Below are positions 11,038 to 64,000 of a stretch of DNA of 64,000 nt, one piece after another; the first letter of the stretch is position 1; each line of letters begins with the position of its first letter. Source of the stretch: Ignavibacteriota bacterium (GTDB lineage Bacteria > Bacteroidota > Ignavibacteria > UBA10030 > CAVZMI01); assembly GCA_963776275.1 (NCBI GenBank), contig CAVZMI010000014.1:115083-179082 (forward strand). The letters are read 5' to 3'. The notes under the pieces were generated by a model. That model had not been told where the DNA came from. It saw only the letters and a program-made list of their open reading frames with translations, and made no database searches. The translations under genes were made by a program, and so were the position numbers.

Positions 11038-11140
11038 TATCGTATTACAGAAACCTTAATTGAATTGTAATTGGCATTGAAGGTTATACATAATTAATGA
11101 AAACTCGAAAAAATAGAATTTTTAGAGGAGTTTAATAAAT

Positions 11141-12688: not shown

Positions 12689-12897
12689 GCCAATAAACAC
12701 ATCAATCATATATCATAACCATAAAGCTTATCTAAAAGAACTGGATTAACAATTCCAAGAGTTGGTAAGGCTCCGTCAGGAAACTGATTCAAGAGAAATC
12801 CAGCTGCACCATGCAATATAATAGTGTATCGGTGAATCGTAAACCTTGAACATTTTTTTAATGCTGATGGATGGCAAAACTTGAAAGATACATGCTT

Positions 12898-24216: not shown

Positions 24217-24634
24217 GGTTAATAAATAAAAATCGAAAATTATTACAATTGATAAATTTTATTTGAGAATCGTTCACCTCGGCTAGCTTTCAAGGTAGCT
24301 GTTCGAATCCGCGGTTTAGTTGTTCGATAGACTCATGATGAGTAAGCTCACCGCGAGTTCGGGGAACTGGATATCGTATAAAACAAGAGGATCAACAGCC
24401 AGATGGCCGAACGTCCACCCCACAGATTCACGTTTTTTCCCTCTCAGAAAAACGTAGTATCCCCCCATTATAGTGTATTATCATAGTTGACAATACGGTT
24501 ATTATCAGCATGATAATAATTCCGAGGGATTACCATGACTTGTACCGGAAAAAGCCCTTTTTTATATGGCACAGATGTTGCAAAAACAGAGTCGGCTGTT
24601 AGGTGTAAAGTATAGTCTGGAGAAAGGCATTATA

Positions 24635-26026: not shown

Positions 26027-26675
26027 TTACAAATTTAGTAGATCGTCGATCGATATTGCCGATAGATTAGGAACAACGATCGAAGCGTTCGGCAGTCTTT
26101 CCATAGGCCCGATCCCAAGTGCTTTCATCCCTGCGCGCCGTGCGGCTTCGATGCCGGTAACGGCATCTTCAACGACAATACAGAGGAGAGGAGGGACGCC
26201 GAGATTTTTTGCAGCAAGGAGAAATATTTCAGGGTCAGGCTTTGAATTTTCTATCGCGTATCCATCGACAATGGTATCGATCAATGTTCCCGATACCGAC
26301 CTGCTGAATAATGGTCTTTGTGTTACGGCTGTTTGAGGCAACGGCAATTTTAATTCCGCGTTTCCTGAGTTCCTTAAGGGCAGTAAGGGCACCGGGTAGA
26401 AGCACTTCATGCGTTACGGTTGAGAGCGATTCGACATAATACTTATTTTTCCTGTCGGCTAATTCCTGTTTCTGTTCGGGGGTAAAGCTTCTGCCCGCAG
26501 CCCTGGTGAGAATTTCCACGCACTCCATCCTTGCCACGCCGCGGAATTTATTATTGAATTCATGATTGAAAAAATCGAATTTCTCTTCGTCGGCAAGTTT
26601 TTTCCACGAACGGTAATGGTACTCATCCGTTGAGACCAGTACGCCATCAAGATCAAAGAGTACGGCTTTAATCAA
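26027..26675 (-). CDS. pgmB: Beta-phosphoglucomutase-family HAD hydrolase (frameshift near 26288)
   Basis: KAVLFDLDGVLVSTDEYHYRSW, IAVASNSRN, SKPDPEIFLLAA, IVVEDAVTGIEAA; two ORFs joined by one extra base. Confidence 0.8.
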
Positions 26676-37400: not shown

Positions 37401-40294
37401 GTGATGTCGTGCACTGCACTAACCAGATGAGTACAACTCCCTTCTTTATCGAAAATGGGAGCAATGCTGACCTCTCCAGTAAACCTGCCTGTCGGATAGT
37501 CGGTTGTTTCTTCCCAGCGGACAATTGTTTTTCCCTGGATCGCCTGTTTGTATTTGTCCAGTACCAGAGTCAGGGATGGCTCCGGGATGACATCGCTGAC
37601 GAGTTTACCGACAACTGCTATGGCAGGCAGCCCTATGGTTGAGAGGAATGCTCGATTGACGGAATTGAACCTGTATTCGCCATCTTTAGTCACATCCAAT
37701 AGGAAAATTGCATCGCCAACAGTCTCGTAAATTGATGAAAACCGCTTCTCGCTTTCACGTAACGCCTGTTCCACTTGTTTGCGGTCGGTAATGTCTTGCA
37801 CTTGAGAGATGAAGTACGATGGATTTCCATCGGCATCATGTACCAGCGAACTGATTAACAATCCCCAAACTACATGTCCATCCTTGTGATAATAGCGTTT
37901 TTCAAAGACGGCATTTTCCGTTTCACCCGCGATCGCCTTTTTGATAAACTCGGGACTCAGGAGTACGTCTTCGGGTACGGCAATAGTATTTACATTCATG
38001 CGCTCGAGTTCCTGTTTGCTGTATCCAAAAATTTCGCACATCTTGTCGTTAACCCGTTTCAAGTTGCCTGCTGTATCTACCAGGCACATACCTGTATTTG
38101 CATTCTCAAAGGCAAGACGGAACTTCTCCTCGCTATCCCTTAATGCTTCTTGTGCCATCTTCCGCTCGGTGATATCTTGTGCAAATCCAATCAGACCGAC
38201 AGGAGTGTTATTTTTATCATAAATCGGAATTTTATCCGTCTGTACCCATCTGATGCCGTCGGCAGATTCATATGGTTCTATTATGTTAAGTTTAGCGCGC
38301 CCTGAGGTTAAAACCTCCTGGTCATCGTTTGTCATGTCTTGTGCAATCTTTGGAGAATAAAGGTCAAAGACTGTTTTTCCCAAAAAATCTTTTTCAGGTA
38401 TTTTTTGTGATTCGGCAAACGTCTTGTTGACGCGAATGAATTTTCCTTCTTTATCCTTATAGAAAACTATGATTGGAGAAGTATCGATAATGAGCTTAAG
38501 TTCCCGCCGCTCTTTTTCCAGTATTGCTTCTAATTTCTTCCGCTCGGTGATGTCTTCCACGGTACCTTCGTAGTACAGAATTTCTCCATTTACATCGCGA
38601 TGAGCTCTTGCGCTTTCCAGAACATGGATCGTTGAGCCATCTTTTCTTATCCATATGGCTTCATACTCTTTAATTTCATCTGCAGCTGCAATGCGCTGTT
38701 TAAACTGACTGCGCGGACAGGAAGGGTCAAATCCTTCTTCCTCAAGGTTGCGTTTTGAAAGTTCCTCAAGACTTGAATATCCTAACATTCGAATAAGAGT
38801 GGGATTTGCGAGAATAATGGCTCCATCCAGAGTGGTTTGATAGATTCCGAGCGAAGAATTTTCGAAAAGGCTGCGGTATTGCTCTTCACTCTTTCGAAGA
38901 GCTTCTTCGGCCTGAATGCGCTCGCTAATATCACGAATGATGACCTGATAGAATTTTATCCCATCGATCGCGATCGGGCGTACACTTAATTCAACAGGGA
39001 ACGTCGATCCATCCTTCCGTCGATGATTAGTCCTGTAGATGGCACCCTGCTTCTCATTAATGATAGCGAACTCTTCTTCCAGACTTATAGAAGTAGCGGA
39101 CAAATGCAGATCGACAAACCTGAACCCGATAATTTCATCATAAGTATAACCATAAGATTGAAGAGCCCGGTCGTTCGCCTCCACGACAATCAAATCTTCA
39201 TTCGTCAACAAAATAATGTCGTTTGCATATTTTATGAGATATTCAAAGTGTGTAACAAGCGCCCGGCGCTTGAGTTCGGCTTCATATTTTTCACGGTAGA
39301 ACTTTAGGCGCTGATGCCTCCACCATAATCCCATTGTCGAAGCGGCGGCAAGAATGAGAAAGGATGCTGCAATTCCAACCATCCATGCTTTTTCACGCAG
39401 TGGAGCATAGACCTCTTCCTGATCGACTTTTGTCACCATAAACCATGGTGAATTCGGAATTTTCCTGATTACTGCCAGCACTGGGACACCACGATAGTCG
39501 ACACCTTCCACCGTTCCTTCAATTCCCCTTACTGCCATTGAAGCGGTCAGTTTTTCATGGATGACCGGCAGGCGGAGGTTCAATGCGGTGTTTTTTTTAT
39601 GACGCACGTCGTTAAGGTAAAGTACGCTGTCGCCTTCGCGGCGAAGTAATAGAGTTTCTGCTGAATGGCTTGGTGTTGGCCACCACTGAATTAGTGGGAA
39701 GAGAACCTTATCGATATCAATTTGGAGTAGAAAGACTCCAACAGCACTGTTCTCGCGTCGCTCATTCGAGACCAGGGGTACAATTAATTCCATATAAAGG
39801 TGCGACGACGGTCCTTTTCTGTGTATATCCGTAAGCAGCACCTCTCGAAGACGAAGAGTCTCCGAAATTTCTCCGTGCGCGATCGAGCACACTGTATCGC
39901 CCTCCGACGTGACAGTAAGCCGTATAGTGCCTTTCGTGTCATAAAGAAATATACTACTATAGTCGTACAAAGATTGTATCGATTTCATCCACACGATAAG
40001 ATCTTGTCGTCGTTTTACCTCCTCCGGTTTTTTGAGGAACGTTTCCACATAACTTGCGATGAATGGGTTCTCCTGGATGATTTTACCATCGGAAAGACGT
40101 TCATCACGCCAGTGGACAATTTGACTTGACTTGAGATCGGTGATTGCGCTCAACGCATCGTGCTGTTCTTGCTTTAGACGAGTCTTTTGAAAATTAAAGT
40201 AGAAATATCCGATGATGAGGATTCCTATGGCAATCAGCGAGAAGATGCCGAAAATTGCCCAGGGAATTCGTTCGAAATAATTAGAGGATTTCAT
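34401..40294 (-). CDS. Giant membrane-bound hybrid sensor kinase (TM-Cache-like-TM, ~7 PAS, 2 GAF, HisKA, HATPase, REC), split by several single-base frameshifts
   Basis: ORFs 36521..40294, 35011..36552, 34803..35018 and 34450..34797 join end to end: GTLAGGIAHDFNN, LNLCVNARDAM, DTGIG/MDEETRTRIFDPFFTTK..GTGLGL, ETILLVEDE..LVISD; final stop at 34401. Confidence 0.88.
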
Positions 40295-49902: not shown

Positions 49903-50078
49903 GTGGTGTTTTATAAAGATTTTATGAACGAGATTTTAGGCATCAGAATAGAAGCTTCATGGAATTATTCATTGTTTTCAGGCGGTTTGAAAAATATGAC
50001 ATGTCAATGAGAGCACTTTCCGTTTATTGATATTCAACAAAACCGATGGTATATTCTTATAACCAGAAGGGGGTTGAT

Positions 50079-53000
50079 ATGTCCGTAAAAATACCAGATG
50101 CTTCTCTTATGGCCCGACAAAAACGGGTGCATCGTAAAATTAATGTAATCATCACGCAGGCTTTTATATTTTTCATAAGTCTTCTACAGATCACGAATGC
50201 CCAATCGTCCGACATATCCAAAGGTACATCACAGCGGCCGTCAAATCTCACCCCTATTCCCGGATGTATGGTTCTGCACGATGAAGAAATCAGGATTCGG
50301 GAATATGTCAAAGCACATCCCGAGATTCTGAAGTCCGAGAGTCTGCAAAAGAGGGCAGTATGGGGTTTCAGCGTAGGTAATGCACACAGTTGGTGGGCGA
50401 GGAACTTTGTTACGAATTTGGAGTATAGCGTTCCATCGACCTGCCGTGCGGTTGGGACACATGCCTATATCTTCGTGGAAGATTCTCTGTGGGTTCACGG
50501 AAAGGCCAATCAGGCTGCCGTGGATTCTATTCGAAATGCTTTCGATCTTCGAACGCCCGCGAATTCTTCGAAAGGAGTTTATCAAACAGACGTCGATACC
50601 TTCGGTGACCCTCCCGATGTGGATAGCGATCCGCGTATCATTATTCTTGTCCTCGATATTAAAGATGGCTACACCGGACCAACGGAAAGCTATGTCTCTG
50701 GGTATTTCAGTACTCTCAATGAATATCCCGAGGGCAGTTTTCCCGGGCATCACAGCAACTATGCCGAAATTTATTATGTCGATGGTGATCCTCAGAATCT
50801 GATGGTTCAATGGGGACTCACCTACGCGATGAGCACTACTGCCCACGAATTTCAACACATGATTCACTGGAATCACGATCCCGATGAGATGACATTTATT
50901 AATGAATCCTGTTCCACCGGAGCAGAAATCATTTGCGGATATCCATACGACTGGCAAGAGCTTTATACCGATAATACTGACATCTGGCTGTTAGGATGGA
51001 ACTATTCTGATGTAATGCCTGAATACTCCAGAGCCACTCGATGGGGCCTCTATCTCTGGAATCAATTCCCAAATGATTATTTAAAATTACTGGTCGCCAA
51101 TACGGCGCATGGCATTTCAGGAATGAACAACGCCCTCGCGGCATACACACCTGCGACATCTCGAAGATTCAACGATGTGTTTCAAGATTGGACTGTGGCT
51201 AATTCTCTTAATGATGTTTCGGTTGACAGCAGGTTTGGATATACATATGCTGGTTCTTTGACGAAACCGACGGGCACCGCCGTTTCGAGTTCAAGTTATA
51301 ACTCGGGAACTGTTACTGTCAATAAAATCGCTGCAGACTACTATACATTTTCCACAGGATCGAATCTTACCGCCACATTCACCAGCAGTGCTTCAGCGTT
51401 GCTTGTGAGGGCGATAGAAGTGGGTGCAGCTTCAAAAAGAGTAGTTGCTGTTCCATTGAATTCTGCATGGAATGAGCCGGCCTTCGGCAGTACATATACG
51501 ACCATCACGTTTGCCGTCGCAAACGATTCGAATAGCGCCAGTGCCTCGTACTCATTGGTATCGTCATATACCGGCCTTGAACCTCCTTCTGCACCGATTC
51601 TTCTCTCGCCGGATAGTGGCGCCGTGAATATTTCGATAACTCAGACACTAAGCTGGAATGCATCGAGCGGAGCGACTGCATATCAATTGCAGGTTTCAAA
51701 AAGCGCGGTTTTCAGTACGCTCGTGTTTGATGACTCAACGATTGCATTAACGACAAAGCAAGTCGGTCCGCTGGGCAGCGATACGATGTATTATTGGCGG
51801 GTGAGGGCGAAAAATGCCTATGGATGGGGCGGTTATTCTTCTATATGGAATTTTACTACGGCTACACCGCCGCTGCCTCCGGAATTATTGGCACCGCTGG
51901 ATGTCTCGGCCGATATTTCGCTGACACCGACATTAAGCTGGAATCCATCAGCCGGAGCGGCGACATATCAACTCCAGGTATCAAAGGGATCGGCATTTAT
52001 TACTATGGTGTTTGATGACACGACGATTGTAACTACATCGAGGCTGGTTGGTCCGCTGGAACACAACACGGCCTATTTTTGGCGGGTGCGGGCGAAGAAC
52101 ATAGGAGGATGGGGTGGTTACTCACCTGGTTTTAATTTTACTACCTTACCGGTTATACCGCCAGTTCCAGTGTTGCTGGCACCGACAGATACTTCGACAG
52201 GTATTGCCATCACACCGACACTGAGCTGGAATACATCAAGTGGAGCAACAGCATATCAGCTTCAGGTATCAAAGAATGCCGGATTCAGCACGACAGTGTT
52301 TGACGACTCGACGGTTGCATCAACATCGAAACAGGTTGGACCGCTTGGGAACGACACATTATATTATTGGCGTGTACGTGCAAAAAACACGGCGGGATGG
52401 AGTGATTATTCGACAACATGGAGATTCACGACTATAATTGCCCCGCCGCCGGTTCCAGTATTGCTGGCACCGACAGATGCTTCGACAGGTATCGCCACCA
52501 CACCGACGCTGAGCTGGAACACATCAAGTGGAGCAACAGCATATCAGCTTCAGGTATCAAAGAATGCCGGTTTCAGCACAACGGTGTTTGACGACTCGAC
52601 GATTGCAGCAACATCGAAACAGGTGGGGCCGCTTGGGAACGACACGTTATATTATTGGCGTGTACGTGCAAAAAATACAGCAGGATGGAGTGATTATTCG
52701 ACGACATGGAGCTTGACGACAATAATTGCTCTGCCGCCAGTACCGGTGTTGTTAACACCGGCAGATGTTTCGACAGGTATCGCCACCACACCGACTCTGA
52801 GCTGGAATGCATCAAGTGGAGCAACGGCATATCAACTTCAGGTATCAAAGAATGCGGGTTTCAGCACAACTGTGTTTGACGACTCGACGATTGCAGCAAC
52901 ATCGAGACAGGTGGGGCCGCTTGGGAACGACACGTTATATTATTGGCGTGTACGTGCAAAGAATGCAGCAGGGTGGAGCGATTTTTCGACAATATGGAGC

Positions 53001-53633
53001 TTGACGACAATAATTGCTCTGCCGCCAGTACCGGTATTGCTGGCACCGACAGATGCTTCGACAGGTATTGCCACCACACCGACTCTGAGCTGGAATACAT
53101 CCCAAGGAGCAACGACATATCGTCTGCAAGTGTCAACAGATGCAGGCTTCATACTTTTAGTATTCGACGACTCGACGATTACAACAACCTCTAGGCAAAT
53201 AGGATCACTGGATAACAACAAAACATATCATTGGCGAGTAAGGGCGAAAAATTCTATAGGGCATAGTGAGTTTTCAGGTTATTGGAGTTTTACTACCACG
53301 TCGACATCTATCGATCGCGTTGGCAACGATATACCCACGGAGTACGGGCTTGGTCAGAACTATCCGAACCCATTCAATCCATCGACAACTATCATAATCG
53401 GACTTCCGGAAGAAGCAGTTATTACACTTGAGATTTACGATATGTCGGGAAGAAAAGTCAGAACGCTGCTGGATGCAGATAGACCGGCGGGATATTATCA
53501 TTCTGTTTGGGATGCGAGGGATGATATGGGAAGAGAAGTTTCCAGTGGAATATACATCTATAGATTCAATGCTGTGCCGGTAAGAGATGGGAAACCATTC
53601 ATCAAATCCGGTAAGCTGGTGTTGGCAAAATAA
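50079..53633 (+). CDS. Secreted zinc metallopeptidase (M30/hyicolysin-like) with six FN3 domains and a FlgD/T9SS-type CTD
   Basis: FGDPPDVDSDPRIIILVLDI, TTAHEFQHMIH (HEXXH), FINESCS; six LSWN..GAT.YQLQVS..YYWRVRAKN repeats; QNYPNPFNP..WDARDD.GREVSSGIY. Confidence 0.82.
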   Translation: MSVKIPDASLMARQKRVHRKINVIITQAFIFFISLLQITNAQSSDISKGTSQRPSNLTPIPGCMVLHDEEIRIREYVKAHPEILKSESLQKRAVWGFSVGNAHSWWARNFVTNLEYSVPSTCRAVGTHAYIFVEDSLWVHGKANQAAVDSIRNAFDLRTPANSSKGVYQTDVDTFGDPPDVDSDPRIIILVLDIKDGYTGPTESYVSGYFSTLNEYPEGSFPGHHSNYAEIYYVDGDPQNLMVQWGLTYAMSTTAHEFQHMIHWNHDPDEMTFINESCSTGAEIICGYPYDWQELYTDNTDIWLLGWNYSDVMPEYSRATRWGLYLWNQFPNDYLKLLVANTAHGISGMNNALAAYTPATSRRFNDVFQDWTVANSLNDVSVDSRFGYTYAGSLTKPTGTAVSSSSYNSGTVTVNKIAADYYTFSTGSNLTATFTSSASALLVRAIEVGAASKRVVAVPLNSAWNEPAFGSTYTTITFAVANDSNSASASYSLVSSYTGLEPPSAPILLSPDSGAVNISITQTLSWNASSGATAYQLQVSKSAVFSTLVFDDSTIALTTKQVGPLGSDTMYYWRVRAKNAYGWGGYSSIWNFTTATPPLPPELLAPLDVSADISLTPTLSWNPSAGAATYQLQVSKGSAFITMVFDDTTIVTTSRLVGPLEHNTAYFWRVRAKNIGGWGGYSPGFNFTTLPVIPPVPVLLAPTDTSTGIAITPTLSWNTSSGATAYQLQVSKNAGFSTTVFDDSTVASTSKQVGPLGNDTLYYWRVRAKNTAGWSDYSTTWRFTTIIAPPPVPVLLAPTDASTGIATTPTLSWNTSSGATAYQLQVSKNAGFSTTVFDDSTIAATSKQVGPLGNDTLYYWRVRAKNTAGWSDYSTTWSLTTIIALPPVPVLLTPADVSTGIATTPTLSWNASSGATAYQLQVSKNAGFSTTVFDDSTIAATSRQVGPLGNDTLYYWRVRAKNAAGWSDFSTIWSLTTIIALPPVPVLLAPTDASTGIATTPTLSWNTSQGATTYRLQVSTDAGFILLVFDDSTITTTSRQIGSLDNNKTYHWRVRAKNSIGHSEFSGYWSFTTTSTSIDRVGNDIPTEYGLGQNYPNPFNPSTTIIIGLPEEAVITLEIYDMSGRKVRTLLDADRPAGYYHSVWDARDDMGREVSSGIYIYRFNAVPVRDGKPFIKSGKLVLAK
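52155..53300 (+). repeat. Intragenic tandem repeat with 288-bp period (FN3 units 3-6)
   Basis: CC(A/G)GT(T/A)CC(A/G)GT(G/A)TTG unit starts at 52161, 52449, 52737 and 53025; units 3-5 are near-identical. Confidence 0.9.
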
Positions 53634-53658
53634 CATTGATCAGTCTTTGTGAACGTAC

Positions 53659-53690
53659 AAAAAGTCCCCGGCATATACCGGGGATTTTTT
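53659..53690. terminator. Bidirectional intrinsic terminator
   Basis: AAAAAG-TCCCCGG-CATATA-CCGGGGA-TTTTTT between convergent genes. Confidence 0.85.
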
Positions 53691-53712
53691 ATAGATAGAT
53701 GAATAGCCGGCG

Positions 53713-56700
53713 TTATTTTTTCAACACTGTGATTTTTGGTTTTAATTTCTCCGATAAGGGCGGGAATGTTTCATTCAGCGATTTGATGAGATCAATACCG
53801 GCGGTATTTTCGGATTGTGAAATGCGACGTAATTGATCAATGACCTTTTTAATTTGATGTACTCCATCGCTCACCTGTCGGAGCAGCTGGGGCGAATTTT
53901 TCGCTAGAATATCGAAGTTCGCATTTTTCAGGACGTTTGCAAGAGTTGTCAATGGCGTATCGATTTCATCTGCGATGCCTGTCGTGAGCCGGCTGACGGC
54001 CGCGAGGTTTTCTTCCCTGATGGCTTTCCCCTGCATTTCCTGGAGATCGGCAAGCATTTGTTCGAGCTCGATATTCCTTCTCTTCAATTTTTCTTCGAAC
54101 GTCCGCCGCTCCTCTTCCAGCCGCTGCTGTTCTGTCATATCGCGTAGAACACCATCGATGCGGACAAGTCGATTCCCTTCATAGAGCGCAATCCAGCGAT
54201 TTTCGATAAATTTCAATGAGCCATCTTTGCATCTCCACCAGGTTGTTTGGTGGGTAGACACATCAAGAGAACTCGCTTTGGTTGGATTGTCGATTTCTTC
54301 CCTCAATGGAGCGAATACTTGATCTGGAGTCACAATGGAGAAAAATTCACGGAGTCCACCCATCTGTTGAATGTTCTCTATAGTATAACCGAATGTTTGC
54401 TTGAATACCGGACTGAGATATCGGAATTCTTTTTTATCTTCGCCGATACTGTACAAAACCTCGTCGATACGGCTGGCCATTCTCTGAAAATTTTCTTCCG
54501 ATTGGTGAAGTTCTTCATCCGCCTTTTTCCGTTCAGTGATGTCTCGCATGATGCCGTCGGTGCTGACAAGACGGCCCTCCTGAAAGACCGGGATCCAATG
54601 GTCTTCAAGGCACTTCACCGTGCCGTCTTTACATCTCCACCAGGCTTCGTAATAATCTGCACCGCCGCTCCGTTGATGAGATGTGATATCGCCGACGATC
54701 TGATCCTGCCTCATATATTTTTCTTCAAGAATAATCTTCGAGAGAAACGAACGGCGGCCTCCCATCATTCTAATGTCATCCTCCGTGTAACCGAGAATAC
54801 GTTCGAATGCCGGACTCAGATAGCGATATTCCATTGTTTCGGCATCGACGCTGTAGATTATATCTTCGATATTGCTGGCCATTCGTTTAAAATTTTCTTC
54901 CGACCTTCTGAGTTTATCTTCTGCAAGTTTTCTTTTTGTGATGTTGCGGCCGTTGCCGACCAGCCCTATGATTTTTCCTTGAGAATCTCGAAGCGGGATT
55001 TTTGTTGTTATGTTCCATTTCATTTCACCCGAAGATTCAATAATAAGCCCTTCCTTATCAATCAACGGTCGGCCTGTACGGAATATTTCCTGTTCATCGG
55101 CAAAATACTCCTCGGCAGCTTCCGGAAGATGAAAGTCGAAGTCGGTCTTTCCGTAGATTTCTTCCATTGTCTTCTTCCCTAAGCTTTGTATAAGAGCTGT
55201 GTTCCCGAGAATGAACCGGCTTTCTGTGTCCTTGACATAGATATAATCGGGGATAAGATCGATCAATGTTCGCAGTAAATTGTGTTCATGCTCTAACGCT
55301 TCCTCAACACGTTTGAGTTCGGTGATATCCTGAACGATCGTTCGGATACCCGTTATCTTTCCGTCGGCATCCCGGAGAAGTCGATCCTCGAGAAGGATGG
55401 GTAGCTCTGATCCGTCTTTCCGCTGGAGAACACGCGCGACACCCTGACTTGGCGGTATCGTGCCGACTAATTTTGCCAACGTTCTTTGGTTTGACTGTTC
55501 TTCATCGGCAGCGAATTTCCACACATATTGGCCAATCATTTCCTCGGCGGTATATCCCAACATCTTCAGTTCGGTTTCGTTGACACGGGTGATGCGTCCT
55601 TCTACATCCAATTCATGGTACCCTACCGGGGCTTCATCAAACAATTCCCTGTACCTTTTTTCGCTTTCCTGCAATATTTCTTCGGCTTGTTTGTGTTTGG
55701 TGATGTCGCGGCCAATGCCTACCAGACCAACTATCTGGTCTTTTTGATCCCGTAACGGTAGTTTGGAAGTAAGCAGCCAGCGTTTCTGACCTTTCTCATC
55801 AAGCACATATTCTTCTCTGTTGAGCACTGGCTGGCCACTTTGTATCACCGATTGGTCGTCATTTAAGAATCCCTCTGCCAATTCTTTCGGAAATAATTCA
55901 AAATCGTCTTTTCCTAAGACTTCGGATTCTGATTCAAGACCCATATTACGGGCATCAGCCAGGTTGGCGAGTGTTTTGCGGCACGCTTTATCCTTTGCAT
56001 AGATTGCGTCGGGCAGGTTATCGATGACGGTGCGAAGCAATATTCGCTCGTTCCGGAGTGCTTCCTCAATCCGCATCCGATCGGTGATATCATGATCCAA
56101 TCCGATGGTGATAATTTTTCCTTCGATATTGATCGGTACCGCACTGTATTCGACGATATTTTCTTTGCCGTCAGGACGAATCCAGGAGAAAATTCCTTTA
56201 AAGTTTTTACCTTCACGGAGCATTCCTGATTGTAGATCTCCAATTGCATCCAACCAACCATATTCGCTTGCTTCTGAATCAATGGCTTTCTGAAGTGGAA
56301 GTGTATTTCCGATTTCTAAGAGTTCTTCTTTACTTCGCCCGGCCATCTCAGCGTACCGTCGATTGCATTCCACAAGACGTTGCTTTCTATCTGTTAAGGA
56401 TTCCTCATAAACACTGATACCATCAAAGGCATTATCGAAGATCAAGCGCAATTTTTCTTCCGATTTCCGGAGCTCCTCTTCTGCCAGCTTCCGCTTTGTA
56501 ATATCGCGACCAATTCCTACCAGACCAACGATCTGGCTTTTTTGATCCCGTAACGGTAATTTGGAAGTAAGCAGCCAGCGTTTTTGACCTTTTTCATCGA
56601 TCACGTATTCTTCTTTGTTGATCACCGGCTGGCCGGTTTGGATAACCCGTTGGTCGTCGGCATAGAATCCTTCGGCCAATTCCTTCGGGTAAAACTCAAA

Positions 56701-59202
56701 GTCATCCTTCCCCAGAACTTCAGCCTCAGATTTAGCTTTCATGTCACGAACATCGGATGGATTCGCCAGCGTTTTGCGGCAGGCCAGGTCTTTGGTATAG
56801 ATTGATTCGGGAGCGCTATCGATCAAGGTACGGAGGAGTATTCGTTCGTTCCGGAGTTTTTCTTCTATTTGTACTCGATCGGTGATGTCGCGATCCAAAC
56901 CGATTGTAATAATCTTCCCATCGATTTTGATCGGTACGGCGTTGTACTCGATTATATTTTCCTTGCCATCGGGGCGAATCCACGAGAAAAGTCCTTGATA
57001 GTTTTTTCCTTCACGAAGTAATCCTGAATGTACATCCCCTGCTACATCCCATATAGATTGATCGTTCATTTCTGCATTGATCGATTTCTGAAGAGGGATT
57101 GTATCTCCGATTCTCAGAAGTTCCTCCTTGCTTCTTCCGGCCATCTCCGCATACCTTCGATTGCATTCTACAAGCTTTCGCTTTTTGTCAGTCAAAGACT
57201 CCTCATAAATGCTGATACCATCGAAGGCACTATCCATAATCAGTCGCAGTTTTGCTTCCGATTTGTAGAGTTCCTCTTCTGCAAGCTTCCGCTTTGTGAT
57301 ATCATGGCCGATGCCTGCTAATCCGATAATCTGGCCTTTTTGATCCCGTAGCGGCAGTTTGGAGGTGAGCAGCCAGCGTTTCTGACCGTTTTCGTCAAGC
57401 ACATATTCTTCTCTGTTGATTACAGGTTGGCCGGTCTGGATGACCGATTGGTCATCAGCAAAAAATTTATCTGCAGATTCTTTCGGGTAGAATGCAAAGT
57501 CATCCTTACCTAAGACTTCGGCCTCTGATTTCGCTCCCATATTATGCACATCGGCCGCGTTGGCAAGGGTCTTGCGGCAGGCTGTATCCTTGGTGTAGAT
57601 TAAATCAGGAATGTTATCGATGACGGTGCGGAGCAGTATTCGTTCTTTCAGCAGTGTTTCTTCGGCCTGTTTGTGTCTAGTGATATCGCGCATCGCAATT
57701 ACGAGTTCGATCCCGGCGTCACTTACCATCATACTGATGATAATCTCCGTGCTCATCCACGTCTCGTCAAACCGCCTGAAACGGAATTCAAAAGACCGGC
57801 TTGTATATGTATCGGTTACAATTCGTAGTTCATTCGCAAATCGTGCTCTGTCTTCCGGATGTACGTAGTCGAGGATGGATGTTCCAGGAATAACGGCTGG
57901 ATTGTACCCCATGAGACGGAACGAGTCGGTCACATACTGATATGTCCCTTCGGCATCGAGAATGGCAATATAGTCTTTGACGTTTTCGGAAATAAGGCGC
58001 AATCGTCCTTCATTTTCGCGGAGTCTCGCTTCGTTCATTACCCGGGATGTAATATCGCGGATGATTGCGACGATCGCCTGCTGTCCGTCATATTCGATGA
58101 CATAGGCATTGGAATGGACGTGAATTTCTTTTCCATCTTTTGCAAAATGAACGGACGATATATTTTCATGTTTACCTTCGCGGAGTATGGTCTGGATTAT
58201 TAAATCTCCACGCTCCGGATTCTTTGTGATGGAACGAAGACTCATTGATGTGAATTCTTCCCGTGTATATCCGTATACCTCGCATGCTTTGCGATTTACT
58301 TCCAGAACCTGTTCATCGGCAGGACGCAAAATAATGATTGGATCGTTTGCATACTCAAAGAGCATATGATATTTTGTTTCCGATCGTCGAATCTCTGCCT
58401 CGGCCTTTTTTCGTTCTGAAAGATCGCGTGCAACGCCGACAAGCGCGAAAGGATTCCCTTCGTCGTCGCGCACCGCCGAAGTCCATAACTCAAGGTAAAA
58501 ATCTGTGCCATTTTTATGGCGGTTAAGGATTTCACCGTTCCATCCGTTATTCAATGTTTCGATTGCCATCTGATTTCCGATTTCAGGATCCATGAGGGGC
58601 GATCGGACAATGGTGATGTTCTTTCCGATCAATTCTTCTTCAGAATATCCGTATGTGTTGATGAAAGCCTTATTAACGAAGAGAATTGTATCGTTTAAAT
58701 CGGTGATAGAGACACAATCGGTGGAGCTCATCACTGTCTGTGCAAGAAGTCGCAGTTGTCGCTCGGTTTCTTTCCTGTCGGTGATGTCCTGAGCTATCCA
58801 GAAGACAGAATGGTCGTCGAGCGGCGAGATCGTCGCACGAAACCAGTGCTTCTTATTCCCGTCGCGTACGGTATATTCAAAGCTTGCCGGGGTTTTTCCC
58901 CGGAGTGTCGATTGAATTTTTTCGAGGATCGAATCGATCTGTCCTGACTCAGTCGAGATGATCTGATCAAGTGTCTTTCCAAGAAATGATAGAGGAGATA
59001 TTTTTTGGACTTCAAGATTAGTCTCAAGAACTTTTCGAACGGTCCCCTGATCGTCCACAACAAAAATACAATCGCTTAATGCAGCAAATAATGAGTGTAT
59101 CTCAGAGTCAGCCTGTGAGAGTTCTTCGGATCGAACATCGGGCGATTGATGTGTTTTCCCTGCAGTCATGGTGCCAGAGTCAGTGTTTTTACTTTTTACC
59201 AT
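53713..59202 (-). CDS. Soluble 13-PAS protein with a degenerate HisKA (His to Asp) and no HATPase domain
   Basis: Thirteen PAS/PAC units ending in D(I/L/M)(T/S), then a coiled coil and EENLAAVSRLTTGIADEIDTPL; the stop comes ~85 aa later and is followed directly by a terminator. Start uncertain (59202 or 59169). Confidence 0.85.
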   Translation of the reverse strand: MVKSKNTDSGTMTAGKTHQSPDVRSEELSQADSEIHSLFAALSDCIFVVDDQGTVRKVLETNLEVQKISPLSFLGKTLDQIISTESGQIDSILEKIQSTLRGKTPASFEYTVRDGNKKHWFRATISPLDDHSVFWIAQDITDRKETERQLRLLAQTVMSSTDCVSITDLNDTILFVNKAFINTYGYSEEELIGKNITIVRSPLMDPEIGNQMAIETLNNGWNGEILNRHKNGTDFYLELWTSAVRDDEGNPFALVGVARDLSERKKAEAEIRRSETKYHMLFEYANDPIIILRPADEQVLEVNRKACEVYGYTREEFTSMSLRSITKNPERGDLIIQTILREGKHENISSVHFAKDGKEIHVHSNAYVIEYDGQQAIVAIIRDITSRVMNEARLRENEGRLRLISENVKDYIAILDAEGTYQYVTDSFRLMGYNPAVIPGTSILDYVHPEDRARFANELRIVTDTYTSRSFEFRFRRFDETWMSTEIIISMMVSDAGIELVIAMRDITRHKQAEETLLKERILLRTVIDNIPDLIYTKDTACRKTLANAADVHNMGAKSEAEVLGKDDFAFYPKESADKFFADDQSVIQTGQPVINREEYVLDENGQKRWLLTSKLPLRDQKGQIIGLAGIGHDITKRKLAEEELYKSEAKLRLIMDSAFDGISIYEESLTDKKRKLVECNRRYAEMAGRSKEELLRIGDTIPLQKSINAEMNDQSIWDVAGDVHSGLLREGKNYQGLFSWIRPDGKENIIEYNAVPIKIDGKIITIGLDRDITDRVQIEEKLRNERILLRTLIDSAPESIYTKDLACRKTLANPSDVRDMKAKSEAEVLGKDDFEFYPKELAEGFYADDQRVIQTGQPVINKEEYVIDEKGQKRWLLTSKLPLRDQKSQIVGLVGIGRDITKRKLAEEELRKSEEKLRLIFDNAFDGISVYEESLTDRKQRLVECNRRYAEMAGRSKEELLEIGNTLPLQKAIDSEASEYGWLDAIGDLQSGMLREGKNFKGIFSWIRPDGKENIVEYSAVPINIEGKIITIGLDHDITDRMRIEEALRNERILLRTVIDNLPDAIYAKDKACRKTLANLADARNMGLESESEVLGKDDFELFPKELAEGFLNDDQSVIQSGQPVLNREEYVLDEKGQKRWLLTSKLPLRDQKDQIVGLVGIGRDITKHKQAEEILQESEKRYRELFDEAPVGYHELDVEGRITRVNETELKMLGYTAEEMIGQYVWKFAADEEQSNQRTLAKLVGTIPPSQGVARVLQRKDGSELPILLEDRLLRDADGKITGIRTIVQDITELKRVEEALEHEHNLLRTLIDLIPDYIYVKDTESRFILGNTALIQSLGKKTMEEIYGKTDFDFHLPEAAEEYFADEQEIFRTGRPLIDKEGLIIESSGEMKWNITTKIPLRDSQGKIIGLVGNGRNITKRKLAEDKLRRSEENFKRMASNIEDIIYSVDAETMEYRYLSPAFERILGYTEDDIRMMGGRRSFLSKIILEEKYMRQDQIVGDITSHQRSGGADYYEAWWRCKDGTVKCLEDHWIPVFQEGRLVSTDGIMRDITERKKADEELHQSEENFQRMASRIDEVLYSIGEDKKEFRYLSPVFKQTFGYTIENIQQMGGLREFFSIVTPDQVFAPLREEIDNPTKASSLDVSTHQTTWWRCKDGSLKFIENRWIALYEGNRLVRIDGVLRDMTEQQRLEEERRTFEEKLKRRNIELEQMLADLQEMQGKAIREENLAAVSRLTTGIADEIDTPLTTLANVLKNANFDILAKNSPQLLRQVSDGVHQIKKVIDQLRRISQSENTAGIDLIKSLNETFPPLSEKLKPKITVLKK
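55690..57660 (-). repeat. Intragenic tandem duplication of a two-PAS module with 798-bp period (2.5 copies)
   Basis: AGCCAGCG (within KRWLLTSKLPLRDQK) occurs at 55775, 56573 and 57371. Confidence 0.85.
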
Positions 59203-59585
59203 AAATAATTTACGCAAAACGAATGCCAGCAAAATGGTAAAAAAACCCAAATATTTTAGGCTTTTTTCCAGGATAAACAATAATTATGGCTAATATTAGC
59301 CGTGTGGGGGAAAATTATCAAATATAGTTTGAGAAAAGAAAAAAAGAGAACTATAAAAAGAAATATAGAGTGAAAAGAATAAAAGCACACCCTCTGTATA
59401 TCAGGTTACAGGCTCCTTTTATATTATAAAGCCTAAAGATAACGCTCAAACAGACCGAACATTCATTATAGAACTCGGAGAGATATCCGGTGGGAATTCC
59501 AGAGTACGACTTGATTCCATAGGGTCTTTTTCGTACACTCTCGTACCAAGTCCTATTTTGTGACAAAGCAAAGGAGAATTCGAAC

Positions 59586-59996
59586 TTGTCACCAGACGTG
59601 ACTCCCGATTATACTTTTCTTGTCATCGATGACTCACCTCACCTTCGTGCGCTCATTAGTACGTACATACGCAAGGCAGGCTTCACGAAAATTCTGACTG
59701 CCGCATCTGGAATGGAGGGAGTCGAGCAATACAAGCTCTCACAGCCTGATATTGTTTTTCTTGACGTTGTTATGCCCGAGGTTGACGGTGTGACGACGCT
59801 TCAAGAAATTCGAAGTTACGATGCGAATGCGACGGTGGTGATGACAACATCAGTCTCTTCGCGAGAAACCGTTCTGCAATTGAAAGAAGCTGGTGCATAT
59901 TCCTATCTTCTGAAACCGTTCGAAGAGGCGAAGTTCCGTGAGACCCTTCAACGAACGGTCGCCTACGTAATTGAATTAAAGAAGCTGAGGAAATAA
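59586..59996 (+). CDS. CheY-like single-domain response regulator
   Basis: LVIDDS, VFLDVVMPEVDG (phospho-Asp), VMTTS, LLKPF; AGGAG RBS and TTG start. Confidence 0.9.
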   Translation: MSPDVTPDYTFLVIDDSPHLRALISTYIRKAGFTKILTAASGMEGVEQYKLSQPDIVFLDVVMPEVDGVTTLQEIRSYDANATVVMTTSVSSRETVLQLKEAGAYSYLLKPFEEAKFRETLQRTVAYVIELKKLRK

Positions 59997-60316
59997 TGGA
60001 ATGTCCGAAATGTAAAGTGCCGAACGACAAATTGAGGAAATTTTGTCGAATGTGTGGATCTCCGCTGGGAATTTACTGTGACCGATGCGGAACGGTCAAC
60101 GCAATGGAAGATAAATATTGTGGAACATGTGGATTGGCGTTACTTCCTTCGGCGGTCGATGATATAATAATTGGCGGATCGGAACAGAATATTCCGCGAC
60201 AGTACAAGTCCCACGAAATCGAAGAATTGCTTACTCTTCGTGAAAAAATACAGAAAGAGAAGGAAGTAACGCAGACATATTCACAGGATGATATTGATCT
60301 TCTCTTTTCCGCTTAA
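59996..60316 (+). CDS. Double zinc-ribbon protein with acidic C-terminal helix motifs
   Basis: CPKC..FCRMCG..CDRCG..YCGTCG; C-terminal YSQDDIDLLFSA; TAATG overlap with the regulator stop. Confidence 0.85.
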   Translation: MECPKCKVPNDKLRKFCRMCGSPLGIYCDRCGTVNAMEDKYCGTCGLALLPSAVDDIIIGGSEQNIPRQYKSHEIEELLTLREKIQKEKEVTQTYSQDDIDLLFSA

Positions 60317-60463
60317 GGGACCGCCACGCCTCAATCTACCGATGACGGCTGGCGGGGATAAGCTCGACAGCCGTCTCTTGTGCTGAAAGCACAAGAGACG
60401 AGCCTCGACACAGTCGGGAGTTCGTCGAAGTCTGACGACCTTTGGCTTACACTAAACGACGAT

Positions 60464-62164
60464 ATGATACCTGAACATCAAACCCTCCTTAAAGCGCTCA
60501 TCACTCAGGGCAGCCTTGATCCGGTGATGCTCGAAGCACGAAAAGATAATTTTTTCGCCGCAATCCGGGAAAAAGGGATTACACGTGGTCTCATGAGTGT
60601 TTTTTCGATTTCTGAAAATGTCATTGCCGATACCATCAGCGCATCATTTAAATGTGCGCGGAGGGCAATTACCAACGAGATCGAAACGGCACCGGGGCAG
60701 TTATTGTCCGATGAAGAGATCAAGACATTCCGTGCTATCCCGGTTTTTCGCATTGGGATCGAGCTGACGATGGCATTTATCGATCCCCCGATAAAAGCTG
60801 TTGTTATCCAGATACAGAAACTCACCGGATGCAGTGTCCTCGCTATTGTTACAACTCCGTCGGATTTCGATACGGCCTTTAACAAGTATCAGGGTTCGAT
60901 CGATAAGCTTCAGAACATGGTTTCAACGATCAAGCTCGAAAAATTCGATCTTCAAAAAGGGGGAGCCACTGAATCACGCAGGCTCGTCGATGGAACCTCA
61001 GAAGCCACCATGACCCAGCTGGTCGACGAATTATTTCTCCGTGCCACAAAAATGGGTGCAAGTGATATCCATATCGAACCGCTGGAAAAAGAATTATTGA
61101 TACGTTTTCGGATTGACGGTGTGCTTCAACGTATTCTCACACTTCCAAAAGAAGCCCACCCGGCATTGGTCGCTGTCGTCAAATCAAAGTGCGGCATGGA
61201 TATGTTCGAACGTGCAATTCCGCAGGACGGCCGCATCACGATTGATTTTGCAGATCGCTCGTTCGATGTACGCGTCAGCAGTCTGCCGTTAATTGAAGGG
61301 GAGAAGATCGTTCTCAGGATTTTGAGTAAATCATCAGGCATGATCGAGCTCGAGAACCTCGGTTTCTCCGAAGAGAACCTGAAGCTGTTCCGGTCATTAA
61401 TGCGGCTTCCCAACGGCATCATCCTTGTAACCGGTCCGACGGGGAGTGGTAAAACGACTACGTTGTATGCTGCCTTGAACGAAATCAAGGGAATGACAAA
61501 GAATATCACAACGGTTGAAAATCCCGTCGAGTATAAACTCCCGCTTGTCAACCAGGTTCAGATCGTTCCGGAGCGCGGACTGACATTCGCTTCTTCGCTT
61601 CGCTCCATTCTCCGGCAGGATCCGAATATCATTCTCATCGGTGAAATCCGCGATGCCGAGACGGGTATCATAGCAACCGAAGCAGCGTTAACAGGACATC
61701 TTGTGCTGAGCACAATTCATACGAACGATGCTTTCGGTGCCATTTCACGTCTAATCAACCTCGGTATCGCCTCGTTCTGGGTCAGTGCGTCCGTTATCGG
61801 TGTACAGGCGCAGCGACTAGTCAGGCGAATTTGCAATCGTTGTAAAGAGGAATATGAACCGGGTCGTGATTTTCTGAGAACGGTGGGACTCTCCGGTCTT
61901 CCGGAGGGAATCACATTTTTTCGGGGAAAAGGATGCAACTTCTGTGCGGGCACAGGATATAAAGGCCGCCTTGCGATTCATGAAGTATTTATGATTACCG
62001 AAGCGATGCGCGAGATTATCTATGGTGAAGTCACCACCCGGAAGCTCCGCGACCTGGCAGCCGCAAACAATTTCCATGATATGTATTTCGACGGAATCCA
62101 GAAAGCGCTGGCAGGGTTGACATCGATCGAAGAAATACAACGTGTGACACGACGTATTATGTAA
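60464..62164 (+). CDS. PilB/GspE-family assembly ATPase
   Basis: ASDIHIEP, RFRIDG, PQDGR, GPTGSGKTTT, LRQDPNIILIGEIRD, TGHLVLST, C..C/C..C zinc motif, TGYKGR. Confidence 0.93.
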   Translation: MIPEHQTLLKALITQGSLDPVMLEARKDNFFAAIREKGITRGLMSVFSISENVIADTISASFKCARRAITNEIETAPGQLLSDEEIKTFRAIPVFRIGIELTMAFIDPPIKAVVIQIQKLTGCSVLAIVTTPSDFDTAFNKYQGSIDKLQNMVSTIKLEKFDLQKGGATESRRLVDGTSEATMTQLVDELFLRATKMGASDIHIEPLEKELLIRFRIDGVLQRILTLPKEAHPALVAVVKSKCGMDMFERAIPQDGRITIDFADRSFDVRVSSLPLIEGEKIVLRILSKSSGMIELENLGFSEENLKLFRSLMRLPNGIILVTGPTGSGKTTTLYAALNEIKGMTKNITTVENPVEYKLPLVNQVQIVPERGLTFASSLRSILRQDPNIILIGEIRDAETGIIATEAALTGHLVLSTIHTNDAFGAISRLINLGIASFWVSASVIGVQAQRLVRRICNRCKEEYEPGRDFLRTVGLSGLPEGITFFRGKGCNFCAGTGYKGRLAIHEVFMITEAMREIIYGEVTTRKLRDLAAANNFHDMYFDGIQKALAGLTSIEEIQRVTRRIM

Positions 62165-62213
62165 TTCCTCACCGGCTCATCATTTTTAAAAAAGAGCAAT
62201 AAATGTGATTTTG

Positions 62214-62241
62214 AAAGTCCGACAAATGTTGGACTTTTTTT
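62214..62241 (+). terminator. Intrinsic terminator
   Basis: AAAGTCCGACA-AA-TGTTGGACTTTTTTT. Confidence 0.8.
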
Positions 62242-62336
62242 GTACGTTTTAGCTTGTGATGAATATTGTACTCTCTTATTTGCAATTCCGCCCAAGTTTG
62301 AGTAAGTTCTCGCCAGAACAACTAATGGAAAATACA

Positions 62337-63849
62337 ATGAAAAAAAATGTCTATTTTATCGTCTGTCTCGTCGCGTTCCTGAACGCGTTATCGAGCTGTC
62401 GGTCACAGGATAATTCAATCGACCGAAAACCCGCCGTTGCAGGTCAGTTTTATCCGGAAGAACGGGAAGTACTCCGGCAAACACTCGAGGACTTTTCTCA
62501 AAGGCATTCCGCCGGGGAAAGTGAAGAATGTCGTTGCGATCATTTCACCTCATGCAGGGTATGTGTTTTCTGGTGAAGTCGCAGCTTCGGGCTTTAATCA
62601 GATCGATGGTGAGAAGGAATATGAAAATATATTCGTTCTCGGACCGAGCCATCATGTCGCTTTTGAAGGAGCGGCAATCTACACAAAGGGAAATTATATT
62701 ACGCCGCTCGGTCCTGTTCCGGTCAGCCGTGAGCTTGCTCAAAAGCTGATCAAAGGATCGAAGGTTTTTGTTGAACGTGACGATGCCCATGCAGCAGAAC
62801 ACAGCGTGGAAGTCCAGCTTCCGTTTCTTCAATATGTCATGAAGAAAAAATTTACTGTCATACCAATTGTTGTAGGGACAGGTGGGAGAAAAACGTGTGA
62901 AGAAATTGCCCGTGAACTCAAGCCGTATTTCAATTCACGGAACCTTTTTATCATCAGCACCGATTTTTCGCATTATCCTTCCTATGAAAATGCAAAGAAA
63001 GTGGATATGGCATCTGCAAATGCCGTTTGTTCGAATTCCGTCTCAGTTCTTCTTGACACGCTCAGACACAACGAAACCATGAAAATACCCAACCTGAGCA
63101 CGAGTATGTGCGGTTGGTCGTGCGTACTGACACTCCTTGCCATGACGCAAGGCGATCCACATGCTTCGTTCCACGAAATTCTGTACAGAAATTCCGGCGA
63201 TTCCCCGGTCGGTGGACGTGAAATGTAGTCGGATATAACGCAATTGCGGTATCGCTTGATCAGGAGGGATCTGCGGTAAGGATTCAATCTTTCGGAACAG
63301 GAGAAGAAAGAATTATTGTCCATTGCTCGAAGAACACTGAATAATTATATCGAAAAGCAGGAGACACCGGCCATCAATGCGTCGTTCGATATCTCCGCAA
63401 CTGACGACAAAATGCGGCGCTTTCGTTACCTTGAAGAAACATGGTGTTCTGAGAGGATGTATAGGACGGTTCGATGCAAGCGAGCCGCTCTACAAGGTCG
63501 TTCAATCGATGGCAATTGCTTCTGCCACTGAAGATCCGCGGTTTCGTCCGGTTGAATCATCCGAGCTTGCGTCTCTTGAAGTCGAAATCTCGGTTCTCAC
63601 TCCGATGAAGAGAATACATTCCATCGATGAGATCAAGCTCGGCAAACACGGAATTTATATCCGAAGAGAGGACGATACGCCGGGACATTCCTGCCTCAGG
63701 TAGCGTCGGAAACAGGATGGTCGAAAGAGGAATTTCTTGGTCACTGTGCCCAGGATAAAGCCGGGATCGGATGGGACGGATGGAAAGATGCGAAGATTTT
63801 CGTGTATGAGGCACTCGTGTTTGGTGAGAACGAGAGTACGAAGCAGTAA
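62337..63849 (+). CDS. AmmeMemoRadiSam protein B (MEMO1-like) fused to protein A (AMMECR1-like), several frameshifts
   Basis: RKPAVAGQFYP, ISPHAGYVFSG, LGPSHH, EHSVEVQLPFLQ, STDFSHY, MCG; then GAFVTL..LRGCIG, EDPRF, EISVLTP, FLPQVA, KAG; stop at 63847-63849. Confidence 0.88.
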
Positions 63850-64000
63850 TGCTGCAGCAAAAAAAATGTGACATAGCGATTGGTGCGTTCGGATTCGGTG
63901 CCATTATCACTCAGACAATTTTTCTGCGGGAGTGCCTTTCTCTATTCTATGGAAATGAGCTGGTTATCGGCATCGTTCTTGCAAACTGGATGATACTGAC
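63849..64000 (+). CDS. Membrane-fused spermidine-synthase-like protein, N-terminus (partial)
   Basis: MLQQKKCDIAIGAFGFGAIITQTIFLRECLSLFYGNELVIGIVLANWMIL matches the Q...LRE....F.GNEL..G..L..W pattern; TAATG coupling to the upstream gene. Confidence 0.7.
   Translation, partial: MLQQKKCDIAIGAFGFGAIITQTIFLRECLSLFYGNELVIGIVLANWMIL

Follow-up and report, generated by a model that had tools for sequence, protein, structure and literature searches.

This work concerns a compact operon found in a stretch of 64,000 nucleotides (nt) from an Ignavibacteriota bacterium (GenBank assembly GCA_963776275.1, contig CAVZMI010000014.1, positions 115,083 to 179,082 of the forward strand; the whole stretch is hereafter called the window). 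The operon encodes a single-domain CheY-like receiver (REC), a small protein with a double zinc ribbon (ZnR) and an ATPase of the PilB/GspE family, and adjoins a divergently transcribed gene for a giant PAS sensor. A sequence-only reading of the window had taken the four genes together as a new signalling module, and the list of open reading frames (ORFs) together with the Pfam annotation bears out the layout that it described, i.e. four genes of these kinds with the three-gene unit divergent from the sensor. The main features of the locus, in window coordinates, are the following.

53665 to 53684: bidirectional terminator-like hairpin, 8 pairs (6 of them G-C), loop of 4
53713 to 59280, minus strand: sensor gene, 1855 amino acids (aa) from TTG 59280, with 13 PAS domains and a kinase-derived tail
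59281 to 59585: divergent intergenic region between the sensor and REC genes, 305 nt, with AAGGAG 8–9 nt 5' of the REC start
59586 to 59996, plus strand: REC, single-domain CheY-like receiver gene, 136 aa, start TTG 59586
59996 to 60316, plus strand: ZnR, double zinc ribbon protein gene, 106 aa
60281 to 60307, plus strand: SQDDIDLLF motif (ZnR residues 96–104), proposed docking helix for phosphorylated CheY (CheY~P)
60380 to 62164, plus strand: PilB/GspE-family ATPase gene, 594 aa from GTG
62213 to 62245, plus strand: terminator hairpin and U-run 3' of the ATPase gene, -18.7 kcal/mol, z = -5.38

The TAA stop of REC shares one base with the ATG of ZnR (TAATG), the start/stop overlap on which translational coupling of the two genes had been suggested, and the block is bounded by terminators on both sides, as had also been noted. 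The hairpin at 53665–53684, which has an A-run and a T-run on both sides, sits between the sensor gene and a convergent gene (50046–53633, plus strand) with a type IX secretion system (T9SS) tail, and the one downstream of the ATPase gene was equalled in stability by 0 of 200 shuffles. This second hairpin was missed by the automatic terminator scan, whose total counts were not above those of shuffles (13 vs 10.0 ± 2.8). Sigma-70-like sites were likewise not above shuffles (18 vs 16.3 ± 3.5) and no significant promoter appeared in the divergent region. The sequence TANNTTTG, which we take to be the Bacteroidota -7 promoter motif, was not enriched (42 vs 43.9 ± 6.7), and no promoter is claimed from its one copy upstream of the sensor gene (59319–59326, minus strand). 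Rfam gave no match within 53000–63000. Relatives of the ATPase are annotated as 566 aa long, for which the equivalent start here is ATG 60464.

Screening one genome per species with the close ZnR alignment yielded 63 matching stretches; 19 of these were confirmed, and they lie in 17 loci. Fourteen of these (L004–L017) were discarded as ZnR relatives, being generic zinc ribbons that lack the C-terminal motif and in which profile coverage goes no further than position 97 of 110, and the synteny count was made on the three loci with full-length ZnR relatives (L001–L003). The order and strand of REC, ZnR and ATPase are kept in all three, with intergenic gaps from overlap to 99 nt. At L001, where ZnR is 97% identical to that of the window, REC ends at 6926, ZnR occupies 6923/6926–7246 and the ATPase 7346–9046; at L002 (ZnR 52% identical) the genes lie at 548–937, 949–1263 and from 1270 onwards; and at L003 (46%) REC lies at 9603–9998, ZnR starts at about 10001 and the ATPase spans 10325–12025. 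The flanking genes are wholly different between L001 and L003. The window and L001 share 90–93% DNA identity, confined to 52733–56027 and 59216–64000, with no indels within the shared parts of the sensor, REC, ZnR and ATPase genes, and the ratio of nonsynonymous to synonymous substitution rates (dN/dS) between them is 0.061 for REC, 0.102 for ZnR and 0.127 for the ATPase. Word-based protein searches retrieved 6 clusters of ZnR, 14 of the ATPase N-terminal domain and 14 of the receiver; several pairs of these orthologue sets have longest contigs of matching size (1385, 7012, 18686 and 10014 nt), from which we infer that the same contigs carry these orthologues.

The genes next to the operon tell a different story. 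The pseudokinase was seen only in the window and in its relative of approximately 93% identity (L001). Directly upstream of the operon at L003, on the same strand, there is a complete PAS-PAS-HisKA-HATPase_c-REC hybrid kinase, and downstream of it a second hybrid kinase (PAS-HisKA-HATPase_c-REC), both with intact H-boxes (LSHDLRSPF and LSHDIRSPL), while L002 begins inside an upstream gene on the same strand that ends in a receiver domain. The four-gene synteny foreseen by the sequence-only reading is thus upheld for the order REC-ZnR-PilB, in three of three loci, but not for the pseudokinase. The conserved unit is a three-gene operon and not a four-gene block; what recurs beside it, judging from the two loci whose upstream gene is fully readable, is a PAS-type two-component sensor adjoining the operon.

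No CheA, CheW, MCP or further pil/gsp family was found among the 48 window ORFs scanned (64 kb; 40 of the ORFs only at E ≤ 1e-5), in agreement with the absence of such genes stated before, and REC is not encoded with CheA, CheW or MCP genes in the flanks of L001 and L003 either. Among the other scanned ORFs, genes for polysaccharide degradation and sugar metabolism predominate, and several of these products have T9SS sorting tails; there are also a PAS/GAF sensor pair and housekeeping genes. The circuit had been described as chemoreceptor-independent, and this holds insofar as chemoreceptor-type genes are lacking nearby, but in the relatives it is not kinase-independent, as the L003 hybrid kinases illustrate. 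The downstream one of these two kinases (L003, 12339–14329) shows up as a pair of overlapping ORFs, of 159 aa and 537 aa, each of which has a PAS match at its start; a frameshift may have split a single gene.

The first protein of the operon matches Response_reg in Pfam (8.5e-27, 94 bits), and D15, D16, D60, T88, Y107 and K110 are invariant in all 17 aligned orthologues, all of which marks it as a predicted phosphorylatable single-domain receiver. Its closest solved relatives are chemotaxis CheYs (6er7, 1.1e-24; 1tmy and 4iga, about 3e-21). Scores are under the NCBIfam cut-offs for CheY equivalogs (89.2 vs 200 bits for NF041367; 58.6 vs 189 bits for NF007901), and by these measures REC is a CheY-like protein, not a CheY equivalog.

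The second protein, ZnR, is recognized by the Pfam double zinc ribbon model DZR (PF12773; 1.6e-10, 41.4 bits vs a cut-off of 27.3) and carries no FliM or FliN domain according to the same database. It is laid out as a double zinc ribbon (residues 1–50), a disordered linker (52–62), a long helix (72–91) that includes EIEELL, and a C-terminal helix (97–103); in the AlphaFold2 (AF2) model (mean predicted local distance difference test score, pLDDT, 81.2) the last of these is a short helix following the long one. Within the C-terminal motif S96, Q97, D99, I100, D101 and F104 are invariant in the 7 close ZnR sequences. An exhaustive profile search gave 7322 matches at E ≤ 1e-3, mostly generic zinc ribbons, from which we examined 102 short proteins (80–165 aa), namely 96 among the 150 best matches plus 6 close homologues. 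The pattern Q..[ILVM][DNE]..[FLIM] falls within the last 45 residues of 71 of them. An alignment of 65 sequences, i.e. 64 of these 71 motif carriers (five N-terminally truncated and two odd sequences were left out) and the ZnR of the window, has the consensus QYSxxxIxELLxLR ... SQDDIDxLF, with F104 invariant, D101 at least 90% conserved, and Q97 invariant by construction of the motif filter. Of the cysteines in the four CxxC pairs, C17, C20, C28, C31, C42 and C45 are invariant and C3 and C6 at least 90% conserved. There is, then, a wider family of proteins of about 105–125 aa that end in a conserved SQDDIDxLF amphipathic helix, amounting to about 70 clusters at 50% identity; leads from the Atlas place its members in Nitrospirota, Bacteroidota, Pseudomonadota and Acidobacteriota.

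It was the longer consensus strings of FliM and CheZ, extending beyond the core 'EIDALL', that first suggested the likeness of this tail to flagellar CheY targets. A conserved 'EIDALL' helix of FliM is described as binding CheY~P in the alpha4/alpha5 groove (PMC9126983). Its counterparts in ZnR are DIDLLF, preceded by SQ, and EIEELL. The prediction of a complex between the CheY-like and zinc ribbon proteins, which had been proposed together with the sequence-only reading, was run for REC (17-row alignment) with ZnR residues 62–106 (65-row alignment) and passed weakly, with a score of 0.37 against 0.01 for the best of 3 controls. The individual runs scored 0.45, 0.37 and 0.35, their contacts agreed at ≥ 90% and the partner pLDDT was at least 62. 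Of 157 solved complexes 116 attain this mark, as do 2 of 215 mismatched pairs; with scores of 0.60 or less it is attained by only 18 of the solved complexes, together with both of the passing mismatches. Taking the sequence likeness, the helical model and this weak complex score together, we propose the ZnR tail as a candidate FliM-type docking motif for CheY~P.

The third protein gives a T2SSE match in Pfam (1.9e-119, 399.1 bits vs a cut-off of 24.9) and aligns with the solved PilF, GspE and PilB at 1e-105 to 1e-111. GPTGSGKTT at residue 352 and the CxxC pairs CNRC at 485 and CNFC at 519 are what we take to be the Walker A motif and a tetracysteine zinc site. It stays below the equivalog cut-offs both of PilB from type IV-A pili (TIGR02538, 514.7 vs 675.65 bits) and of GspE from type II secretion (TIGR02533, 501.2 vs 630.25 bits), and the named members of the small clade defined by its N-terminal 210 residues all carry the label 'Bacteroidota bacterium'. 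MshEN, whose binding of cyclic di-GMP (c-di-GMP) is reported to involve two 24-residue motifs (PMC11656802), matches here at 4e-6 (27.1 bits vs 23.1) and over residues 102–173 only; residues 30–60 fit the c-di-GMP-binding motif poorly by eye. The protein is accordingly predicted to be a full-length, divergent member of the PilB/GspE family with its nucleotide-binding and tetracysteine motifs intact. Cultured Ignavibacteria are reported to carry pilT, pilQ, pilB and pilC (PMC3534657).

The best explanation that we can offer, tentatively and with rather less than even confidence, is a relay from a kinase to the phosphorylated receiver, from there to the ZnR tail, and on to the ATPase. A histidine kinase, at L003 presumably the hybrid PAS kinase whose gene lies directly upstream, would phosphorylate REC. 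The phosphorylated receiver would then use its alpha4-beta5-alpha5 face to bind the C-terminal helix of ZnR, much as CheY~P does with the N-terminus of FliM, and ZnR would contact the ATPase through its zinc ribbons or its long helix. The assembly motor, which would work for a type IV filament or type II secretion machine with genes elsewhere, might thereby be turned on, turned off or relocated. At most, the 13-PAS protein would be a scaffold or decoy that binds the receiver and in this way modulates it.

Several observations weigh against this relay. The likeness between the ZnR and FliM motifs spans only about 9 residues, phmmer found 0 matches of the ZnR tail to PDB sequences at E ≤ 10, and Foldseek found none for the ZnR model in the PDB at E ≤ 0.001 (the best, at E = 0.28, were generic zinc fingers of the NZF/RanBP2 type). 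The score of the REC-ZnR complex lies in the weak band, and because complexes of CheY with FliM peptides have been solved, the pass may reflect this likeness and not binding of ZnR by REC. No kinase for the receiver was identified in the window. The ZnR frame of L003 (10001–10315) has an in-frame stop at the codon of Q69. Finally, the genomic context comes from three loci of one lineage (metagenome-assembled genomes, MAGs, of Bacteroidota/Ignavibacteriae), so that the shared order may be simply inherited. As to the L003 stop itself, it replaces the codon for the otherwise invariant Q of a PRQY motif and the frame then runs on to an SQNEIDNLFG end; either the gene is dispensable there or the stop is an error of the MAG.

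Another arrangement would have the receiver act directly on the ATPase, with ZnR as a separate cofactor or inhibitor of the latter, comparable to PilZ or CpiA, that does not bind the receiver. Precedents exist for both halves: direct contacts between response regulators and PilB have been published for the cyanobacterial PATAN-REC proteins on PilB1 (10.1101/2021.06.11.447907), and small PilB binders are known in PilZ, which sits on the N1 domain, and in the inhibitor CpiA (PMC11656802). It would also suit the position of the ZnR gene, immediately 5' of the ATPase gene at each of the three loci. However, direct action leaves the conserved FliM-like helix at the end of ZnR without a function and does not account for the prediction for REC with this tail, weak but well apart from its controls, and we regard it as rather unlikely.

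The relay from receiver to ZnR to ATPase leaves the 13-PAS protein a modulating part at most; the sequence-only reading had counted it among the four members of the module. The relevant features of its gene are these.

54112 to 59097, minus strand: array of 13 PAS domains, residues 62–1723, E 8e-30 to 1e-48 with a profile from the protein's own repeats
55679 to 57574: three direct copies at 798-nt spacing, 76–77% identical, each one two-PAS unit of 266 aa
53716 to 54111, minus strand: degenerate DHp/HisKA-like tail, residues 1724–1855, with HisKA below its cut-off and support from AtoS, BLASTP and the Atlas

Many PAS models of Pfam match the protein at high score. The count of 13 given by the sequence-only reading was recovered with a profile built iteratively from the internal repeats; TIGR00229 matches 12 stretches. 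The 798-nt copies, which came from a separate repeat search (Tandem Repeats Finder returned nothing in this gene), are by their sequence the record of a recent internal expansion of the PAS array. The HisKA match to residues 1763–1825 reaches 18.7 bits, below the cut-off of 26.9, and HATPase_c has no Pfam match in the protein. Homology of the tail to DHp domains is nevertheless supported: residues 1745–1822 align with the DHp region of the AtoS model, 22 of 30 feature neighbours of the tail in the Atlas fall in the HisKA set, and BLASTP relates the tail to the H-box region of a kinase elsewhere in the window (35011–36552) at E 0.012. An AF2 model of the tail, made without an alignment (pLDDT 54.7), is all-helical after the PAS domain and not reliable enough to be used in a fold search. 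The H-box of the sensor (GIADEIDTPL) places Asp1771 (codon 53968–53970) opposite the His in the GGIAHDFNNIL of that other kinase. The ORF stops where the catalytic domain should start, 80 nt from the convergent gene, and the ORF downstream (53274–53636, minus strand) matches no Pfam family. A frameshift as the cause of the absent catalytic domain was rejected, there being no room for it before the convergent gene, L001 having the same stop, and the gene showing no indels against L001, in contrast to the many in the Memo-AMMECR1 gene of the window. That the sensor is no normal kinase is therefore confirmed by the substituted His, the sub-threshold HisKA and the missing HATPase_c, and the protein is predicted to be unable to autophosphorylate or to transfer phosphate.

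Whether the sensor is soluble, as had been stated, depends on the start codon. It would be so from ATG 59202, but translation from TTG 59280 would include one N-terminal hydrophobic stretch. The former is the likely true start, because in L001 the stretch that matches 59216–59280 is outside the ORF, upstream of it, and differs from the window by a 1-base indel.

The last approximately 770 codons of the sensor, for five PAS domains and the tail, are common to the two genomes, GIADEIDTPL and the stop included; the N-terminal two thirds differ. The window has eight further PAS domains here, cytoplasmic (56028–59215), and L001 (3300–6149) a signal or transmembrane segment, a Reg_prop propeller (periplasmic), a Y_Y_Y domain and a second transmembrane segment. 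The breakpoint falls inside the 798-nt PAS repeat region, and the dS of the sensor (0.33) is 2–5 times that of the neighbouring operon genes. With a dN/dS of 0.113 over the 770 shared codons, the 13-PAS protein is a real, lineage-specific kinase derivative under purifying selection, and its gene neatly illustrates how input domains are swapped in nature on a kinase-derived output that stays constant and is not catalytic.

The conserved tail could bind the receiver. DivL-type pseudokinases, which are PAS-rich and have no phospho-accepting His, act by binding a single-domain receiver; DivL keeps its catalytic domain and has Tyr for the His, whereas the sensor described here has Asp and ends before the catalytic domain. 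In a four-part module like that of the sequence-only reading, the pseudokinase would be the dedicated input, its PAS domains sensing signals and its His-less DHp tail binding and so controlling the CheY-like protein, and the output would pass through ZnR to the ATPase. The divergent arrangement around a common control region of 305 nt would fit it, and so would the strong purifying selection on the tail (dN/dS 0.053 over 131 codons) and the fact that L001 has kept the tail and last five PAS domains despite replacement of the sensor half, a hint that the output end is of importance here. Yet the two more distant loci have no pseudokinase (a real hybrid kinase at L003, an upstream gene with a receiver at its end at L002), and a linkage found only in two genomes that are 90–93% identical in DNA carries little information. 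A dedicated pseudokinase input seems improbable to us on this balance.

There is also only a slight chance, in our judgement, that ZnR is a sink or competitor for CheY~P, a decoy of FliM that tunes flagellar chemotaxis, with its co-transcription with the ATPase being mechanistically meaningless. The FliM-like motif would be accounted for, and cultured Ignavibacteria are reported to be flagellated (PMC3534657), but a decoy does not explain why the tight three-gene order is kept down to 46% ZnR identity, or why the clade of the ATPase N-terminal domain (14 clusters) is similar in size to the receiver set (also 14). That REC, ZnR and the ATPase are mere neighbours without a common function is very improbable indeed: the single lineage behind all of the context and the ZnR copy with a stop codon would allow it, but the REC/ZnR overlap, the purifying selection on all three genes and an order kept in three of three loci despite completely different flanking genes speak against it.

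Returning to the relay through ZnR, control of type IV filament or type II secretion motors by CheY-type receivers through an adaptor is already known in kind, and what would be new is the role of this adaptor, suggested by the motif likeness and one weak prediction. One close parallel is that of archaea, where a CheY-type receiver acts through the adaptor CheF on the archaellum, a type IV filament machine with an ATPase of the PilB/FlaI superfamily and without FliM (PMC9126983). The details differ, since CheF is described as a PH-domain dimer that contacts CheY~P close to where it is phosphorylated and not through the alpha4/alpha5 groove, and docks on ArlCDE, not on the ATPase (PMC9126983), while ZnR, with its zinc ribbons and FliM-like helix, is unrelated to CheF in sequence and fold. 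Another parallel is FimX-PilZ-PilB of Xanthomonas and Pseudomonas, in which the small PilZ (about 120 aa) bridges the N-terminal domain of PilB to a REC-PAS multidomain protein, and the ternary complex is reported to raise ATPase activity (PMC11656802). There, however, c-di-GMP is the input and acts by way of a degenerate GGDEF-EAL protein, the REC of which is given as lacking the acceptor Asp (PMC11656802), whereas the receiver described here keeps all the phospho-acceptor residues and the adaptor is a zinc ribbon and not a PilZ fold. With FliM and CheY~P our case shares the short acidic and hydrophobic helix, and the closest solved relatives of our receiver are chemotaxis CheYs, but the FliM motif is the N-terminus of a rotor protein and the ZnR motif the C-terminus of a zinc ribbon protein of 106 aa. 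CheY-like regulators also control type IV pilus motors in the Pil-Chp, Dif and cyanobacterial Tax systems (PMC12632253, PMC11181946, 10.1101/2021.06.11.447907), which use CheA, CheW and MCP-type receptors, none of which was found in the window or in the flanks of L001 and L003. Further known controls of such motors are c-di-GMP binding to MshEN and the CpiA inhibitor (PMC11656802). As these sources describe them, none of the routes compared (Pil-Chp/cAMP, MshEN, PilZ-FimX, PATAN-REC, CheF) uses a zinc ribbon adaptor or a FliM-like peptide, and full-text literature searches (PilB with response regulator and zinc ribbon; double zinc ribbon with CheY) returned no description of the operon.

Some further features of the window deserve mention. 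The Memo-AMMECR1 gene, a single ORF of 522 aa in L001 (9162–10730), is interrupted in the window (62256–63703) by about a dozen indels of 1–2 bases that leave at least three ORFs, as would be expected of a gene in decay or of errors in the local assembly. A GH43 gene with a T9SS tail in four pieces (12871–14755), a ROK kinase in two (24566–25644) and a HAD hydrolase in two (26027–26675) also look split by frameshifts. At 35011–40294 on the minus strand a 1257-aa ORF with approximately six PAS domains and a GAF domain overlaps by 32 nt a 513-aa GAF-PAS-HisKA ORF, which has a normal H-box (GGIAHDFNNIL) and ends inside the catalytic domain (…DTGIGNG*); the pair may be one frameshifted gene or another truncated kinase. 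The convergent gene at 50046–53633 (plus strand) encodes a protein of 1195 aa that has a weak T9SS sorting tail, fn3 domains and five Rha78A-like Ig repeats; alignments of its internal repeats, with one another and with L001, fall at three offsets spaced by about 285 nt.

A wider generalization can be drawn from the ZnR family, although we think it rather unlikely to be right in full. Proteins with a double zinc ribbon and SQDDIDxLF would form an unrecognised multi-phylum class of output adaptors for CheY~P, in which the FliM helix is reused for non-flagellar machines (here a PilB/GspE-type ATPase), and, in this lineage, a kinase remnant with Asp for His, no catalytic domain and exchangeable sensor halves (13 PAS domains or a periplasmic propeller) would have become a non-phosphorylating partner of the same receiver. 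On the narrower ground of the locus described here, the operon hints at a new wiring of two-component signalling to a pilus or secretion motor. If the ZnR tail does bind CheY~P, a flagellar type of CheY recognition would have been moved onto a pilus-type motor in Bacteroidota/Ignavibacteria, and there would be a simple sequence signature by which to find CheY targets outside flagella.

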